This document shows, in pieces, positions 38,940 through 55,088 of a DNA stretch of 60,845 bases. The notes under the pieces are model-generated. The model was not told the origin of the DNA, did no database searches, and worked only from the letters and a program-made list of their open reading frames with translations. The stretch spans positions 1 through 60,845 of the forward strand of contig JACQWV010000010.1 in the NCBI GenBank assembly GCA_016209085.1, read 5' to 3'. Position numbers and translations under genes: made by a program. Source of the stretch: Elusimicrobiota bacterium (lineage in GTDB: Bacteria; Elusimicrobiota; Elusimicrobia; Elusimicrobiales; UBA9959). How positions within the stretch are numbered: the stretch's first letter is position 1; each line of letters opens with the position of its first letter.

Positions 38940-39983
38940 TTACCCTCTTTTTGACCAAAGCGCTCCGGGACCCTTGCCAAGGCATTTTACTACGCCCTTC
39001 CTGCTCAGGTCTTTTAATACGAGCCGTATCATATCCCTGCTTACGCCTGGGCAGGCCTTTTCCAAATCAGCCAATGTAAAATTCCCCGCAAAAGATTTTA
39101 TAGCGTTCAGTACGAAACCGGTTTTTGCGCCTTTTGCGGACTTAACCTTTCCGGCTCTATCTTCAAATTCAATGTATGCCCGCCGGATTATGGAGAGAAA
39201 ATAATTAAACCAGGGGATAATGTTGTGCCTGCCTTCATGCCATTTCCGGGAACTTTCCAAAAGAACGCGGTAGTAATCTTCTCTGGTATCCTCAACGAGT
39301 CGTTCTATGCTGATGTATCTGCCGACGTCTATCCCGCGTTGATAAAGCGCCAGCAAAGTCAGGAGCCGGGCGACCCGGCCGTTGCCGTCGCGGAACGGAT
39401 GAATGCACAGGAAATCCAGTACAAAAGCCGCGATAGCAAGTATGGGAGGGACATGCTCCTGATTTATAGCGTGACGGTATGCGACGCACAATTCTTCCGC
39501 GGCTTTAGGAGTATCTTTGAAGGAAACCGGCTTGAAGCGGATAAACGGGGCCTGCCCCGGTTTCGTTTCAATGATTTCATTATCAATATTTTTGAACTGG
39601 CCAGCGTCGCCGGACCCTTCCTGAATCATCAGATGCAATTTCTTCATCAGTTCCGGCGTGATGGCTAAATTTTTATGGTTTGCGTGTATCAGGTTTAAAG
39701 CCTTGCGGTATCCCTGCACTTCCTCTTCAGAGCGATTTTTGGGACGGACATTTCCGAGGACCAGGGGCTTAAGCCGCTGCGCCTGAACCGTAATGCCTTC
39801 TATGCGGTTTGAAGATTCCACGCTCTGAACCAGAGCCATATCCCTAAGGGCTTTTAAAATCTGCGGGGACTGTTTTGTGTAAAGGTCCTGCCGGCCCTTG
39901 CTTTGTGCGATATCTGTCATGAGCCAGACCGACCCGGCAGGAATGGCGAAATTTTTTAATCTTTCATTTCGGAATGACATCAT
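38940..39983 (-). CDS. Fic-family protein (AMPylase-type; class II with N-terminal inhibitory motif) with a C-terminal winged-helix domain
   Basis: HPFRDGNGRVARLL core motif. SNRIEG fits the (S/T)xxxE(G/N) inhibitory helix. Confidence 0.9.
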   Translation of the reverse strand: MMSFRNERLKNFAIPAGSVWLMTDIAQSKGRQDLYTKQSPQILKALRDMALVQSVESSNRIEGITVQAQRLKPLVLGNVRPKNRSEEEVQGYRKALNLIHANHKNLAITPELMKKLHLMIQEGSGDAGQFKNIDNEIIETKPGQAPFIRFKPVSFKDTPKAAEELCVAYRHAINQEHVPPILAIAAFVLDFLCIHPFRDGNGRVARLLTLLALYQRGIDVGRYISIERLVEDTREDYYRVLLESSRKWHEGRHNIIPWFNYFLSIIRRAYIEFEDRAGKVKSAKGAKTGFVLNAIKSFAGNFTLADLEKACPGVSRDMIRLVLKDLSRKGVVKCLGKGPGALWSKRG

Positions 39984-40128: not shown

Positions 40129-40141
40129 AGAAGGGTGGCTG
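40129..40141. repeat. 13-nt direct repeat partner (overlaps the tRNA-His 3' end)
   Basis: agaagggtggctg. Confidence 0.6.
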
Positions 40142-40207
40142 ACGGGATTTGAACCCGCGACCTTCCGGGCCACAGCCGGACGCTCTAACCGCTGAGCTAC
40201 AACCACC
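40134..40207 (-). tRNA. tRNA-His (anticodon GTG)
   Basis: Cloverleaf folded by hand. G-1 is encoded. The acceptor is GTGGTTG/CAGCCAC, the D stem GCTC/GAGC, the anticodon stem TCCGG/CCGGA with loop CTGTGGC, and the T arm GCGGG-TTCAAAT-CCCGT. CCA is not encoded. Confidence 0.9.
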
Positions 40208-46207: not shown

Positions 46208-47389
46208 ATGTACGAAGAATGCCCCATGAAGTACAAATTCAAATACATTGAAAAAATAAAGGAAAAACCTAAATCCTACTTTGCCTTCGGTCACAGCATT
46301 CATTCCGCCATGGAGTTTCTCTATGCCGTGAAATCCCCGCCTTTTCCTTCTCTTGAAGAAGTTCTGGAATTTTTCACTACGGGCTGGGACAGAAAATCCT
46401 GGCTTGAGAAAGGATACAAAGACGCGGCAAAAGCCGAGAATGACTTTCAGGAAGGCCGCAGAATGCTCGCCGCATATTACAAAAAGCATTGCAAAACTCT
46501 TGAAGTTCCGTTCCTCCTTGAGTACGAATCAGAGGTTGAGACTGACGGTCTCATGGTAAAAATAATAGCGGACAGGATAAATTATCTCGGAAAAGGCGAG
46601 ATTTTGATAATAGACTACAAGACCGGAAAGGACGTGAAAAGAGAGCCGGACCAGCTTTACATGTATCAGAGAATCTGCGAGATGGACGAACGGCTGAAAA
46701 AACGGGTTAATGAAGTCTACGGAGAGAATCCGCCTGACATAAAAGTCAGGAATCTCGTTTATTACCACGTGCCCTCTCTCAGGGAGGTCGCTTTTGAAAG
46801 GGCGAAGGAGACCGAGATAAATTCCTTCTGGCAGAGAGTATTGTCGGTTGCGGACAGAATAAGAAAATCTGAGTTTGAACCGAATCCCGGAGAATTTCAA
46901 TGCAGGTTCTGCGATTACGGCCAGTTGTGCCCTGTTTACGCAAAAAACGGGTCTTTTACTGGAGAGGCGGACCTGTCCGCCGGAAAAGAATTACAGGGAG
47001 CGAAACTTGAAGACATGATAGACGAGTACGCCGAGTTGAAGCTGAATTCAGAGTCCATGAAAAGCCGGATGGAAACTTTGAAAAACGCCATACTTGCCGC
47101 AGCCGGAGGCCCCCGTTCCGGCCCCCTGAACGGCAGGAAGTACTCCATGGAAATCAGAAAAGACGAGAAATGGTTGTTTAAAGACAGGGAAAACATAACA
47201 AAAGTTTTAAAGGAAACCGGCATGTATGAAAAAACCGTTTCCCCCACGGTGAAAGGCATTGTGGATTTACTCAAAGACGGGACAATACCGGAAACCGTTA
47301 AAGAGAAAATAAGAAAGGCCGGGGAGCGGGTGGAGGAAGTAGAATTTGAAATTACTACTTTGCGAGGCTCAGTAAACCAGCGATTATGA
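46208..47389 (+). CDS. PD-(D/E)XK nuclease family protein (Cas4/AddB-nuclease-like, with a Cys cluster)
   Basis: ECPMKYKFKYI, IADRINY...LIIDYKTGK, and the C-terminal CRFCDYGQLCP. Confidence 0.75.
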   Translation: MYEECPMKYKFKYIEKIKEKPKSYFAFGHSIHSAMEFLYAVKSPPFPSLEEVLEFFTTGWDRKSWLEKGYKDAAKAENDFQEGRRMLAAYYKKHCKTLEVPFLLEYESEVETDGLMVKIIADRINYLGKGEILIIDYKTGKDVKREPDQLYMYQRICEMDERLKKRVNEVYGENPPDIKVRNLVYYHVPSLREVAFERAKETEINSFWQRVLSVADRIRKSEFEPNPGEFQCRFCDYGQLCPVYAKNGSFTGEADLSAGKELQGAKLEDMIDEYAELKLNSESMKSRMETLKNAILAAAGGPRSGPLNGRKYSMEIRKDEKWLFKDRENITKVLKETGMYEKTVSPTVKGIVDLLKDGTIPETVKEKIRKAGERVEEVEFEITTLRGSVNQRL

Positions 47390-50982: not shown

Positions 50983-51239
50983 TTGACCAACTGTTTGTAA
51001 ATTACGGCCGAAATGAATATGCCGATGAGGCTGGCGATGTTGAATTTGAATATGAGGCCTATGGTGAATTCAAACAGACTCAGGTCAATGGTCGTGGGTT
51101 TCAGACCCGTATTTATGCCGGTGCTCATAAGCTCGGCTATTTTTCCGGCTGCAAACCAGACGTTGAACAGCTTGTTTATGAACATTCCGATGAGGGAACC
51201 TACGACGACGATGATGATTACATGAATGGCGTTTTTCAT
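50979..51239 (-). CDS. Small membrane protein (DUF4321-like)
   Basis: 86 aa with two TM segments. It overlaps both neighbours by 4 nt. Confidence 0.45.
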   Translation of the reverse strand: MKNAIHVIIIVVVGSLIGMFINKLFNVWFAAGKIAELMSTGINTGLKPTTIDLSLFEFTIGLIFKFNIASLIGIFISAVIYKQLVK

Positions 51240-51619
51240 TTAAGGAAGCCGGTTTTATGATTTTTTTCCCTGTCCCTGTCTTTTGAGATGTTGGTGGAAA
51301 ACAGGGTATTCGCTCCCAGCCATGTCAGATAATCCTTATTTCCGGAAGATATTTCAAAAAACACGGTTTCAGGGACGGTATAAGAGTGATTTTCTTTGAC
51401 GAATTGTATTATGTCCGCTGAAAGGGTTTTTCTTGTTTTAACTATGAACAGGCATTCCTTTGAATTCTCAATTTTGCCTTTCCACCAGTAAGAAGACGAA
51501 ACGTTTTCAATAATCATAACGCACGCTGCCAGTTTGTTTTTGAGCAGCCCGTCTCTCAGCTTTTCCGCCGTTTTTGCGTCTCCGGCTGTTATAAAGCAAA
51601 TCTGATAAGGCGTAGCCAT
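51236..51619 (-). CDS. cutA: Divalent-cation tolerance protein CutA
   Basis: ..LLKNKLAACVMIIENVSSSYWWKGKIENSKECLFIVKT.. matches the CutA1 core. Confidence 0.75.
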   Translation of the reverse strand: MATPYQICFITAGDAKTAEKLRDGLLKNKLAACVMIIENVSSSYWWKGKIENSKECLFIVKTRKTLSADIIQFVKENHSYTVPETVFFEISSGNKDYLTWLGANTLFSTNISKDRDREKNHKTGFLK

Positions 51620-51670
51620 ATAATAAGATAATATAAATACAACGCTGTTTCAGTCAACCCTGAGCGACAA

Positions 51671-51684
51671 CCTGAGCGACCCTA
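51671..51684. repeat. 14-nt direct repeat cctgagcgacccta (left boundary of the ATPase/DUF4276/GIY-YIG islet)
   Basis: Identical to 54133-54146. It is preceded by a tandem partial copy, cctgagcgac, at 51659-51668. Confidence 0.7.
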
Positions 51685-51692
51685 AAAAAAGA

Positions 51693-52121
51693 TTACTTCG
51701 TCTCTACAACATTTTTGGGGGATGATGGTTTCTTCCTGTGGCATGATTTCACTGGTTGGCGAAAGGTACGGCTGTCTTGTTCTCCCGTCGAACTCACATT
51801 AGCTGGAATGAATGGTTTAACACATTGTTTAGTAAGAATAATTTCCTCTTTCTTGGAGCGAGGCATCGCTTTAATCTGTGCTTCTTGGATTAGGGCTTTG
51901 GAATGCGTCAAACCCTCTTGCTGAAATAATAGATTTACCGGCAAGCGAGTTCTGGTATATGTCGCCCCTTTGCCATTATTGTGCTGTTTTAACCGCGCCT
52001 CGACATCTTTCGCTATCCCCGTGTAAAGCGATCCGTCCCCGCAACAGAGAATATAGACTGACCATTCCCGTTTGCGGCCTTTTTTCATTCCTCGGATCAT
52101 TTTCAGATATTTTGGATTCAT
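51693..52121 (-). CDS. GIY-YIG nuclease family protein (UPF0213/YhbQ-like core with a basic tail of about 50 aa)
   Basis: [62 protein letters not shown]. Confidence 0.85.
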
Positions 52122-52152
52122 TTTAAAATAAGTATTGTGTCCCCGAAATTCC

Positions 52153-52779
52153 TTAAGAAACTCGCAGTTCCCTGAGCATTTTCTCTATGTCTCTGTAACA
52201 TTTATCAAATGATTCGGAATTTGTTCGTGCGGCCGTCATATCAAGTAATTCTGTAAATGCAGGTTGATCTGTTGTTTCTGTGTATCTTTGACCTTCCGGC
52301 ATCTGGTCGCTAATCCACTCTTTTGCACCGCGAATATTCTCTGGATTCAGAGGAGATACTAATGTTTCTGGGAGTCCGCTCTTCCCGCGAAGCGACTCAG
52401 CAGCAGCCAAAAGCCATGTTTCATATTCCATCTTTGCCAACACAACAAATATCGGTATGTTCCTACGGGCTGCCTGGGCGCGCGCCCGCAGCTCAGGTCC
52501 ATTTATTGCGGGACAACAATCTTTAAAATCACCATCAAGGAGTATAAAAATGCCTCCATTTCCATTTAGCTTATAGGATGCCAGGACCACAGCGCGTTCA
52601 ATCTCCCCGGCCTTTAACAGGAGCGAAGCTGGAATACGTATAGGATAAAGTATTTGGGGGACAAAATCAGGAAAGATATCCAACGCAATTCTGCGGATTA
52701 AAATGGGGATCGCTTCACATTCCCCGTGCCCTTCAACTATTGGGATAATTTTTACTTGGCCCATGTTTGTAGTTCTCAA
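52153..52779 (-). CDS. DUF4276-family protein (Toprim-like fold)
   Basis: About 203 aa from the Met at 52764. [14 protein letters not shown] (acidic EG..E), ILLDGDF (DxD) and [14 protein letters not shown] agree with my recollection of DUF4276 hallmarks. It overlaps the 3' end of the ATPase gene. Confidence 0.65.
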
Positions 52780-53983
52780 AAAGATCTGGTTGAGTTGGAG
52801 TTGTATATTCCGTACAATCGGGTTCTAACTGATTTATCCTAAGAAGTTCGCCTGGCGTATATAGGCGTTCCTTTATTGCTTTTTTTCCCGCTGAATCCAA
52901 AGGACCCATTTTGGTCTCTCCGTTTTTATTAATAACCGGCCAAATACACGACTCGGAAATATCCTTATCATCCAACAAGTCAGGGCTATGACTGGTAACT
53001 ATAATTTGGGTTTTCTGGGAAGCAGCCAGAAGCGCGTCACGCAAAATTCCGGCTGCGCCCGGATGTAATGCCACCTCTGGCTCTTCAATACCGACAAATG
53101 GAACTTTTTTTTGGCTGTTATTGGAAGATTGGAATAAAGCTGTCAGTACGCCAAGCGCCCTAAGTGTGCCATCGGACATGTTTTCTGCCATGAATCGCCA
53201 TGGGTCACTACTGTTCCCAACATTTTGGCGAAACTCCAGCGTCTCCTTTTTTCCGATGTGTTTCACATCTACACTTTGAATACCAGGCACCGCAGTTGAA
53301 AGGAAATCAATTACCCTGTCGTGCGTTTCTTTGTTTTCCCGTTTCATCATATCCAGGACACTCGCAAGATTGCCGCCATCCCGCCTCAAGACCTCCCCCG
53401 CATCCGATGGTTGTAATTCTCTGATTTCATCCGGGCTAAGGTTATAAAATCCCATATGTGATAACGCATTATATAAAGATTTAAATTTAGGGACACCGGC
53501 AGCCATAACTAAAAAGAGTCGGTCGGTGTTTATTGGCAGGTCACTGCCTATGTTGTGCTCTTTGAGCTCTCCATCCTCAACTTTATAAAAACTGTCCTCA
53601 CCTAAGTTTTTACCAAAAATTTTGCACTCCTCGCGTTGAACTGCAAACCCCCCTTTCTCACGAGACTTTACGCGGAACGCATACATCCCTTCCGTCCCAT
53701 CTGCCAGTTGCCACTCCAATCTGATTCCAAAATGAGTCGGATGCCCGGCAGATCTTCGCCTTACTTCGTTTATCCCCCCCCGGTCTCGTAAGGCATGCTC
53801 TAGAGAAGTATTTAATGACTCCGTCACAAGGCGCAGAGCATCAAGAAAATTGCTCTTTCCTGCCCCATTTTGACCGACAAGAAAAGTCAATGGCCCAGGT
53901 TGAACACTACATTCTTTTATGCTCTTATAATTGTTGAGGATTATTCGTTTTAAAAAGACAGGGGAATTCATAATTATCTCCAC
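52733..53983 (-). CDS. ABC/SMC-type AAA ATPase (AAA_15/AAA_21, OLD/RloA/PtuA/AriA-like)
   Basis: 416 aa. Walker A is GQNGAGKSN, the signature-like motif is MSDGTLRAL, Walker B is FVGIEEPEVALHP and the H-loop is VTSHSPDLL. Confidence 0.85.
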   Translation of the reverse strand: MEIIMNSPVFLKRIILNNYKSIKECSVQPGPLTFLVGQNGAGKSNFLDALRLVTESLNTSLEHALRDRGGINEVRRRSAGHPTHFGIRLEWQLADGTEGMYAFRVKSREKGGFAVQREECKIFGKNLGEDSFYKVEDGELKEHNIGSDLPINTDRLFLVMAAGVPKFKSLYNALSHMGFYNLSPDEIRELQPSDAGEVLRRDGGNLASVLDMMKRENKETHDRVIDFLSTAVPGIQSVDVKHIGKKETLEFRQNVGNSSDPWRFMAENMSDGTLRALGVLTALFQSSNNSQKKVPFVGIEEPEVALHPGAAGILRDALLAASQKTQIIVTSHSPDLLDDKDISESCIWPVINKNGETKMGPLDSAGKKAIKERLYTPGELLRINQLEPDCTEYTTPTQPDLFENYKHGPSKNYPNS

Positions 53984-54132
53984 AAAAAAGGTTCGTATGC
54001 CACTAGCCGATTATAGGACTCACGTAATTAAACGAGTCTGTTTATCTATTCTCTAAAACCCGGAAAATTCTCGCCTTTTCCTAACCTTATCTAATTCTAA
54101 TAAATTAATTGCTGTTTTAAAAAGTAAAAAGG

Positions 54133-54146
54133 CCTGAGCGACCCTA
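54133..54146. repeat. 14-nt direct repeat cctgagcgacccta (right boundary of the islet)
   Basis: Partner of 51671-51684. It is followed by hairpins cgaccct..agggtcg and tcgtccc..gggacga. Confidence 0.7.
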
Positions 54147-54197: not shown

Positions 54198-55088
54198 TCA
54201 ATACTCGCAGGTCTGGGAGAAATCCAGCTGAAGTCTTTCAACGTCCGACTGCCGGGCGAGCCTCCATTTCCTGTCTTTTTCCAGTTCTTCCATGTAAGTT
54301 TTCTGAATTTTGGCAAGTACGTCCGTTTGTATTTCGTAGAATTCCCGCTGGAACCTGTAAATGTCGTATCTCGGGAGAGCTTTTATCCTGGCCTCGTTTT
54401 TTATGGCGTCGGCTCTTGAAAGTATTCCCCTTTCAACCTTTCTCAAATCTCTTTCATAAAGAAGCTGAAAAAATTTGGACTCGTCGGTCATCGCCTCTTT
54501 TGTCTTGTCAAGCCATCCTTTTACCGAATTCATGGTCTCAAGGGGTCTCAGGCATGCCGGCTCATCAGAAAGGGCGGTGTTTCTGGCTGTTTCCATCGCC
54601 CTGTGCGAGCCTTCCATAACATAAGCGCAGAACTCGTTCAGGGTGTTTTTGGCAAAATCCCCTTCAAAATCCTCAGGTATGAAGCTCAAATCCGCCGCCA
54701 TCCTGGCCTGCAGGAGAGTCGCAAGCTCCTCTTCTTCGGATATAATCTGTTCAAGGCCGGTTTTCACGGACATGTCGTAGATGTAAAGAACCTTTGCGAT
54801 TTTAAGGGCGAGCATCGTATCCGATTTCTTCAAATCCCGCGGCAGATATATGATTCTTGAATTTGCCAGAAACTTGTGGCAGTTTTCCGGAGTGTTGGAA
54901 TATTCAAGCCGCGGAGGAAATTTTGACACTGACGCAATCAATATCCGGCCTTCCGCTGTGTGGGAAATTATGTCAAGGGCTCTTTCTATGGAGGGCTCGG
55001 CAGTCATTGATTTGTCTTTTCTTAAACTGCCGGAGCATGCGCTTAAAAAAATCATTGAGGCAAGCAAAAGCAGCGTATGTTTTCCCAT
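54198..55088 (-). CDS. Hypothetical lipoprotein
   Basis: 296 aa with the lipobox LSAC. Confidence 0.5.
   Translation of the reverse strand: MGKHTLLLLASMIFLSACSGSLRKDKSMTAEPSIERALDIISHTAEGRILIASVSKFPPRLEYSNTPENCHKFLANSRIIYLPRDLKKSDTMLALKIAKVLYIYDMSVKTGLEQIISEEEELATLLQARMAADLSFIPEDFEGDFAKNTLNEFCAYVMEGSHRAMETARNTALSDEPACLRPLETMNSVKGWLDKTKEAMTDESKFFQLLYERDLRKVERGILSRADAIKNEARIKALPRYDIYRFQREFYEIQTDVLAKIQKTYMEELEKDRKWRLARQSDVERLQLDFSQTCEY

Follow-up and report, generated by a model that had tools for sequence, protein, structure and literature searches.

Introduction

In a member of the Elusimicrobiota, three co-directional genes on the minus strand stand between cutA and a lipoprotein gene, and raise the question of whether they form a single system or belong to two different units that share one insertion. 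The locus lies in a stretch of 60,845 nucleotides (nt), read on the forward strand of contig JACQWV010000010.1 (Elusimicrobiota bacterium, assembly GCA_016209085.1); this whole stretch is called the window. The three genes encode an ATPase, a DUF4276 protein and a GIY-YIG protein. The original prediction had located them correctly and had regarded them as an uncharacterised defence module with the GIY-YIG protein as an additional effector. The analysis reported here leads to a different answer: the ATPase and DUF4276 genes are assigned to a candidate system that is already catalogued, HEC-01; the GIY-YIG gene is an independent neighbour of the UPF0213 type; and both were inserted, as foreign DNA, between the lipoprotein gene and cutA. 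The pair is probably a defence system of the ATPase–Toprim kind. For this reading as a whole, a probability of about 0.75 can be given.

The ATPase and DUF4276 genes are a HEC-01 pair

The genes of the islet, i.e., of the segment between the repeats, are as follows.

52733–53971, minus strand: HEC-01A ATPase gene, 412 amino acids (aa) from the ATG at 53971, assigned from Pfam, PADLOC and conserved motifs
52153–52764, minus strand: HEC-01B gene, DUF4276 (Toprim-like), 203 aa from the ATG at 52764
52733–52764, minus strand: overlap of the two genes, 32 nt, given the choice of ATG starts
52153–53984, minus strand: extent of the shared two-gene cassette, from nucleotide homology to loci L003, L004 and L096
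51693–52121, minus strand: UPF0213-type GIY-YIG gene, 142 aa, free-standing; within the insertion and outside the conserved HEC-01 unit

The profile libraries scanned were Pfam, PADLOC-DB and the NCBIfam MAD3 model, and the Pfam families foreseen for the three products (AAA_15, AAA_21, DUF4276 and GIY-YIG) were all matched. The ATPase matches AAA_21 (6e-26), AAA_15 (1.5e-22) and SMC_N (3e-13), and is covered over its full length by the PADLOC profile HEC-01A, PDLC04178 (3.2e-155, 515 bits, residues 6–404 against positions 2–396 of 399). Other PADLOC profiles also match it, namely AriA (4e-25), Old (1e-24), AbiLi (1e-23) and GajA (7e-16); the AriA, Old, GajA, AbiLi and mad3 matches are at least 100 orders of magnitude weaker than that of HEC-01A. 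The motifs reported earlier (GQNGAGKSN, SDGTLRAL, VGIEEPE and TSHSP) were found, as the Walker A motif GQNGAGKSN, the signature NMSDGTLRAL, the Walker B motif VGIEEPE and the H-loop VTSHSP. In an alignment of 21 family members, G.NG.GKSN, NMSDGTLRALGVL, VGIEEPE and VTSHSPDLL are at least 95% conserved.

The recognition of the second protein as a member of DUF4276 was borne out as well: it matches PF14103 with 35.4 bits against a gathering score of 30.2 (1.7e-8), as do all 24 of its aligned homologues. In PADLOC, it is matched by HEC-01 models only, and full-length by HEC-01B, PDLC04196 (2.2e-65, residues 10–203 against positions 3–193 of 197). Its homologues form 1,919 clusters at 90% identity; most are 60–64% identical, and the named sources include Elusimicrobiota, Sedimentisphaerales and Lentisphaerota.

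The 2024 description of HEC-01, the "Hma-embedded candidate", is of an ABC ATPase whose TOPRIM-like partner has the metal-binding site of the B. pseudomallei OLD protein [Payne et al., bioRxiv 10.1101/2024.01.29.577857]. In addition, the tree in the PARIS paper takes in AAA15/21 ATPases paired with DUF4276. Because the matches to the PADLOC profiles HEC-01A and HEC-01B are full-length and a description of HEC-01 has been published, the pair in the window is, as judged by sequence comparison, a new example of this catalogued candidate system, and the view of it as an uncharacterised module has to be given up. The part of the original prediction that saw here a split, OLD-like ATPase with a Toprim-like partner is supported by Pfam, by PADLOC and by the conserved overlap of the two genes.

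The size of this overlap depends on the choice of start codons. In its longest form, the open reading frame (ORF) of the ATPase extends over 52733–53983 and encodes 416 aa from a GTG, whereas gene callers and homologues favour the ATG at 53971. The longest DUF4276 ORF (52153–52779) encodes 208 aa from a TTG; the alignments of homologues start at the ATG at 52764. With the two ATG starts, the overlap is 32 nt, the lower end of the 32–47 nt proposed before. Among relatives, the two genes overlap by 32, 13 or 4 nt, and this conserved overlap suggests translational coupling.

The conserved unit has two genes

How far the conserved unit extends can be seen from the set of HEC-01B relatives, which comprises 90 loci with 51–85% identity (loci used in the comparisons carry L numbers). 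Every locus with more than 150 base pairs (bp) of upstream sequence (81/81) has an ATPase gene immediately before its DUF4276 gene, and so has every locus with at least 1,200 bp (58/58). The cassettes closest to that of the window are those of L003, from an Elusimicrobiota metagenome-assembled genome (MAG), L096 and L004, with nucleotide identities of 87.6, 87.1 and 86.2%, respectively. The homology runs from 53984, which is 13 nt before the ATG of the ATPase gene, to the DUF4276 stop codon (52153–52155), and ends on both sides. Since the pairing holds in 81 of 81 loci, a GIY-YIG relative is present in none of 70, and nucleotide homology is confined to the two genes, the shared, mobile unit is the 1.83-kb two-gene cassette.

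In L003, this cassette stands elsewhere in genome order, between a Mur ligase gene and the genes for an Hma-like SNF2 helicase and a Type ISP methylase. The neighbourhood (L003:9559–15380) has the cassette directly upstream of the SNF2-type helicase gene and of a gene for an Eco57I/Type ISP methyltransferase of 1,122 aa, with a DUF3800 gene beyond, and is similar to the Hma setting of the original HEC-01 description.

Around the related loci, 164 flanking genes fall into 96 clusters. Neighbours of defence type include HmaA, DrmD, BrxH, mad2, mad8, RT_XIII, capP-like proteins and methyltransferases of types I, II, III and IIG, and housekeeping genes are mixed among them. Homologues of the pair thus adjoin many defence components; the trio does not recur in the loci compared. 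There are 28 same-strand genes within 200 nt downstream, with 17 representatives, and they are heterogeneous (a ResIII helicase, methylases, a DprA-like protein, metabolic genes).

The commonest recurrent neighbour, seen at seven loci, is a divergent Peptidase_M78 (ImmA/IrrE, capP-like) gene with a helix-turn-helix gene, immediately downstream of the DUF4276 gene (e.g., L005:6001–7878; L007; L008; L116; L133), and could be a regulator of the cassette. Carriage by plasmids and phages is rare, with three Streptomyces plasmids and one phage contig at 35–40% identity. The same ATPase and DUF4276 pair is annotated, with no GIY-YIG gene, on Streptomyces sp. NBC_00445 plasmid NZ_CP107915.1 (L181:2583–10563). 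There, it sits between a gene for a Fic-family toxin and a second pair, encoding an AAA ATPase of about 660 aa and an ATP-dependent helicase of about 620 aa; this second pair recalls Gabija by protein sizes alone.

The GIY-YIG gene is a neighbour, not a component

The GIY-YIG ORF starts 31 nt 3′ of the DUF4276 stop codon, as had been noted, and its product matches the Pfam family GIY-YIG (3e-15) and the structures 1ZG2 (BH0048, 3.6e-14) and 1YWL (EF2693, 2e-12). Its sequence places it in UPF0213, whose members are small genes that stand alone in unrelated surroundings. The residues Y23, Y33, R43, H47 and E80 are invariant, so the catalytic positions are intact, and an N-terminal segment, KYLxMIxGMK, is likewise invariant among the homologues. 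Hundreds of small proteins (about 100 aa) share 70–80% identity with the core, which is itself about 100 aa long. Homology stops after KKEEII; the C-terminal tails differ in every copy, and that of the window (about 45 aa) is unique.

At the nucleotide level, only the coding core (about 290 nt) is shared, and the window is 75–78% identical to L013, L014 and L015. The genes at these three loci (L013:4509–4907, L014:5001–5306 and L015:5001–5300) are 84–89% identical to one another amid unrelated flanks, which would fit an independently mobile small gene. The three close homologues (76–80% identity) are all solitary, in unrelated neighbourhoods with no HEC-01 pair or cutA nearby.

The reverse search, from HEC-01 loci for GIY-YIG genes, was carried out by tblastn and with a local hidden Markov model (HMM), built from 120 homologues and run against six-frame translations. 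By tblastn, none of the 70 HEC-01 loci with at least 500 bp downstream has a relative of the window gene. The local HMM found none in the 90 HEC-01 loci, its matches being confined to control loci and the organism's own contigs, and no GIY-YIG domain is present in the 17 representatives of the downstream genes. As the homologues are solitary in unrelated contexts and only the coding core is shared, the GIY-YIG gene is distributed independently of HEC-01 and adjoins the cassette without belonging to it. A conserved trio with an additional GIY-YIG effector is thus contradicted by the counts (0/70 and 0/90 loci) and by the end of homology at the DUF4276 stop codon.

The insertion between the lipoprotein gene and cutA

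The boundaries of the insert and its surroundings are as follows.

51236–51619, minus strand: cutA (CutA1, Pfam 1e-31), first gene of a CutA-DUF4321-Maf-QueD-TrxB block
51630–51657, minus strand: native cutA promoter-like element, TTGACT-16-TATATT, from its promoter score; common to L179
51659–51670, no strand: partial third copy of the repeat, CCTGAGCGACAA (core CCTGAGCGAC, 51659–51668), directly abutting the left repeat
51671–51684, no strand: left direct repeat CCTGAGCGACCCTA, at the junction with native DNA on the cutA side; follows the stop codon of the GIY-YIG gene, by 8 nt, and an A7/T7 run
53985–54132, minus strand: insert-specific, AT-rich leader (about 150 nt) that separates the ATPase gene from the right repeat
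54133–54146, no strand: right direct repeat CCTGAGCGACCCTA, 51 nt past the stop codon of the lipoprotein gene; one arm of a hairpin, with a T-rich run after it on the minus strand
54198–55088, minus strand: lipoprotein gene, Elusimicrobia-specific, with the lipobox LSAC in the N-terminal signal sequence

That the trio is accessory and not part of the core genome, a point on which the original prediction might have failed, is apparent from relatives. In five contigs from three Elusimicrobia lineages (L176, L177/L178 and L179/L180), the spacer between the lipoprotein gene and cutA measures 30–138 nt, compared with 2,578 nt in the window. These contigs have the gene order AsmA-lipoprotein-CutA-DUF4321-Maf-QueD-TrxB, and the block has the same outer neighbours as in the window: PfkB and an ATP-grasp CoA ligase at one end, an FGGY kinase and a PD-(D/E)XK protein at the other. 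A fourth lineage, L056 (Elusimicrobiaceae), has another gene in the slot (L056:4446–5717), with a strong hairpin after it. The 423-aa product has a signal peptide, ends in Phe and resembles an outer-membrane beta-barrel; no homologue of this gene was found in the window. Because the lipoprotein gene and cutA of relatives either lie 30–138 nt apart or have a different gene between them, all three genes of the islet are accessory at this position, and the trio is missing from the slot in all four lineages. Since L056 holds a different gene in the same slot, genes seem to have been gained there repeatedly.

The identical 14-nt repeat was found exactly as claimed. The window contains exactly two copies of the 14-mer CCTGAGCGACCCTA, one at 51671 and one at 54133, compared with a mean of 0.02 in shuffled sequence and two copies in 0 of 100 shuffles; unrelated loci totalling 1.75 Mb, which served as background, have none. 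On the cutA side, a block TTGACT...TTATATTATCT...ATG, which scores as a promoter, is common to the window and the uninterrupted locus L179; therefore, native DNA resumes by 51657, 14 nt beyond the left repeat. When the flanks are joined over a single 14-mer, the spacer becomes about 116 nt, inside the 30–138 nt range of the relatives. Within the leader (53985–54132), which is not homologous to any part of the closest HEC-01 cassettes, there are weak promoter-like hexamers (54121→54094). Hence, the idea of an insertion footprint stands at the level of gene order, but an empty site at the level of nucleotides was not obtained, the nearest homologue of the lipoprotein being 47% identical. The lipoprotein family is named only from Elusimicrobia, and this 47% belongs to its next-best member. 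Scans of genome and metagenome collections with exact 8-mer patterns of the lipoprotein gave no relatives; the exact 296-aa product is not on record, and a 269-aa version matches only the organism's own contigs.

The repeat could be an att-like core for a recombinase supplied in trans, or a junction formed at microhomology. Both cargoes lie between its copies, and a single insertion event is therefore the simplest history, with stepwise assembly as the alternative. RNA folds at the two repeats are no stabler than those of shuffled controls (z −0.64 and −0.39). A copy of CCTGAGCGACAA in L056 was considered as a relic of the slot gene and attributed to chance: the 10-mer core is present six times in the 1.75 Mb of background loci, where about three are expected, and the L056 copy has the opposite orientation relative to the flanking genes.

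There is also a similarity of 13/18 nt (ATAAAT.A...GCTGTTT) between 51633–51650 and 54100–54117, 15–20 nt from each 14-mer, with the left match inside the native cutA promoter spacer. The region beyond the right repeat may be a diverged duplicate of the cutA promoter, or the match, which is weak, may be due to chance in AT-rich DNA.

The DUF4276 protein and the Toprim superfamily

The residues expected of a Toprim nuclease, a conserved Glu following strand 1 and a DxD motif following strand 3, are present in the DUF4276 protein. In the alignment of 24 homologues, E11 and E15 (IVEGxGE), D77-x-D79, and E113 and E115 are invariant. In an AlphaFold2 model of the protein (predicted local distance difference test score 85.7, predicted template modelling score 0.81), E11 and D77-x-D79 lie at the ends of the strands predicted at residues 5–10 and 70–77. 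According to a 2025 Nucleic Acids Research paper, DUF4276 and RloB belong to the Toprim superfamily and have its conserved Glu and DxD, and Mad4 is a DUF4276 homologue.

In the model, these residues are thus placed as in a Toprim protein, but structure comparison did not recover the fold. The top Foldseek matches of the model in the PDB are generic three-layer alpha/beta folds. The best structural match in a viral library is an RloB-like protein, at a marginal level (E 2.7e-3, template modelling score 0.39), and 5 of the 24 family members have sub-threshold Pfam matches to RloB (E at least 0.12). The TOPRIM_OLD domain was not detected, and DUF4435 gave no match to the protein even at E up to 10. 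The Toprim assignment of HEC-01B thus rests partly on the literature: the conserved motif is present in the sequence, and the fold was not recovered by comparison.

Comparison with known systems

The pair in the window is like HEC-01 in its full-length matches to both profiles, in the arrangement of its genes (adjacent, co-directional and overlapping, with A upstream) and in having relatives beside Hma-type helicase and methylase genes. It differs in that it stands between housekeeping genes instead of being embedded in Hma, and in that it lies within a repeat-bounded insert beside a UPF0213 GIY-YIG gene.

PARIS consists of the ABC ATPase AriA and the DUF4435 Toprim nuclease AriB, the target being tRNA-Lys. 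It resembles the pair in having an AAA_15/21 ATPase and a Toprim nuclease as two genes, with the ATPase as the probable sensor of infection by analogy; the ATPase of the window matches AriA at 4e-25. However, its partner is DUF4276, not DUF4435, and the AriA match is far weaker than that of HEC-01A. Mad3 and Mad4 of MADS are also an AAA ATPase with a DUF4276-type Toprim protein, and mad2-like genes flank some HEC-01 relatives. The ATPase nevertheless misses the equivalog cut-off of the NCBIfam MAD3 model (97.6 bits vs 420), the DUF4276 protein is recognised by HEC-01 models alone, and the methylase and other MADS genes are absent from the locus.

OLD nucleases and GajA of Gabija combine an ABC ATPase with a Toprim-type Glu and DxD, and the ATPase has weak matches to both (Old 1e-24, GajA 7e-16); in these proteins the domains are fused, whereas in the window they are on two separate, overlapping ORFs, and there is no GajB-like helicase partner. 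AbiL (the ATPase AbiLi and the RloB-like AbiLii) is a two-gene pair as well, and the best viral-library neighbour of HEC-01B is RloB-like, but the sequence similarity is marginal (AbiLi 1e-23, RloB E at least 0.12). Finally, the GIY-YIG gene is similar to UPF0213/YhbQ-type genes, in that its core aligns with 1ZG2 and 1YWL, the Tyr, Tyr, Arg and Glu are kept, and it is a small free-standing gene. It differs in its unique tail of about 45 aa and in belonging to a metagenomic subgroup with 70–80% identity and unrelated flanks.

Proposed explanation and alternatives

In the explanation preferred here, about 2.46 kb of foreign DNA has entered the short spacer that separates the lipoprotein gene from cutA, and the 14-nt repeat marks both junctions. 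One cargo is the compact 1.83-kb, two-gene HEC-01 cassette, and the other a free-standing UPF0213 GIY-YIG gene with a distribution of its own. The identity of these genes, the limits of the conserved unit and the insertion are shown by the sequence comparisons. By analogy with PARIS, OLD, Gabija, AbiL and Mad3/Mad4 of MADS, the HEC-01A ATPase would probably sense infection and hold the nuclease in check. Once released or activated, the Toprim-like HEC-01B would cut DNA or tRNA via its metal-binding Glu and DxD residues, and such cutting would stop replication of the phage or stop the infected cell. This putative defence role and nuclease mechanism are drawn from related families and from two published phage assays of HEC-01, both of which used copies other than that of the window. 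In one of them, a cold-seep representative gave E. coli B protection from one or more of the phages T7, T5 and T4 [2026 Nature Communications, PMC12881386].

Could the ATPase, the DUF4276 protein and the GIY-YIG protein nevertheless be one three-component system, with the GIY-YIG protein as second effector? The tight spacing of the genes (32-nt overlap, 31-nt gap), the lack of a detected terminator between them, the enclosure of all three in the repeat-bounded insert, the intact GIY-YIG catalytic residues and a weak PADLOC match of that protein to PDC-S14 (4e-4) would all agree with such a system. It is nonetheless very improbable, given that no HEC-01 locus searched by either method has a GIY-YIG relative, that the downstream representatives are heterogeneous and have no such domain, that the three close GIY-YIG homologues have no HEC-01 pair nearby, and that the homology of the cassettes stops at the DUF4276 stop codon. 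The shared orientation of the three genes is little informative, as the run from AsmA to TrxB is co-directional throughout. There is a related proposal, in which the 2.46-kb segment is a recombinase-less mobile islet and the GIY-YIG protein either a homing-nuclease-like carrier of HEC-01 or an extra effector recruited in this lineage. The enclosure of both cargoes by the repeat, the 84–89% nucleotide identity amid unrelated flanks, the core-only homology and the differing tails are hints of such an active role, which is scarcely to be expected.

Two further explanations question the nature of the pair and of the repeat. The HEC-01 pair might have no anti-phage role and might instead be a selfish, addiction-type module, or a factor for nucleic-acid maintenance that travels with mobile DNA. 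This would suit the position of the window copy and of several relatives among housekeeping genes, the unusually high conservation of HEC-01 (60–64% identity across phyla) and the outcome of the first E. coli test. It is nevertheless unlikely, as the family was discovered embedded in Hma systems, many relatives adjoin components of restriction-modification, Hma, DISARM, BREX, MADS or reverse-transcriptase systems, and every characterised ATPase–Toprim relative (PARIS, OLD, Gabija, AbiL and MADS) is a defence system. A more serious possibility, although still a doubtful one, is that no single insertion left the 14-nt repeat as its footprint: the repeat may be a copied native hairpin or regulatory motif, or the two cargoes may have arrived in separate events. 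The right copy is a hairpin arm after the lipoprotein gene, there is a partial third copy beside the left one, the weak 13/18-nt similarity near each copy overlaps the cutA promoter spacer, the islet has no recombinase gene, and the two cargoes are distributed independently, each with homology boundaries of its own. Against this, an exact 14-mer present twice is unexpected by chance and absent elsewhere, its copies bracket exactly the DNA that is missing from uninterrupted loci, and the single-copy join gives a spacer within the range of relatives.

Several observations weigh against the preferred explanation of an inserted HEC-01 defence pair with an independent neighbour. With regard to the insertion, the evidence for an empty site is gene order, a site with a single TAGGGTCGCTCAGG being beyond reach with the nearest lipoprotein homologue at 47%; the three islet genes contain no recombinase, integrase or transposase domain, as had been stated in advance; and, with both cargoes inside the repeat, some connection of the pair with the GIY-YIG gene in the donor is conceivable. 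With regard to the nuclease, a Foldseek search of the DUF4276 model against the PDB gave nothing at E up to 1e-3 and no Toprim entry among the top 50, and a profile of the DUF4276 family found only insignificant CheY matches (E at least 0.2) among PDB sequences. With regard to defence, this HEC-01 copy lies among housekeeping genes, outside any defence island; HEC-01 gave no protection in E. coli assays against the phages tried [bioRxiv 10.1101/2024.01.29.577857]; and the family is without biochemistry.

The assignment turns a seemingly new three-gene module into an existing entry, and spares wasted experimental effort. HEC-01 is a large family (more than 1,900 clusters at 90% identity), understudied and unusually well conserved across phyla, and the islet is a clean natural case of a minimal 1.83-kb ATPase–Toprim cassette in a conserved housekeeping operon of a poorly studied phylum. 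The uninterrupted sites, together with the 14-nt junction repeat, are useful for asking how defence cassettes without a recombinase move.

Other features of the window

The GC content of the islet (0.42–0.48) is the same as that of its flanks, and base composition thus gives no anomaly that would mark an island. The source organism is deep-branching within Elusimicrobia, and the best match of its TrxB is from an Elusimicrobiaceae MAG (64%).

Two genes lie further from the islet. At 46208–47389, a gene of the PD-(D/E)XK nuclease superfamily stands beside an FGGY kinase gene and appears defence-like at first sight; because L176 and L177 also have both genes, beyond trxB, the nuclease-superfamily gene is probably part of the core genome. 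At 38940–39983, there is a gene for a Fic/DOC-domain protein (347 aa), about 150 nt from a tRNA-His gene (40133–40206).

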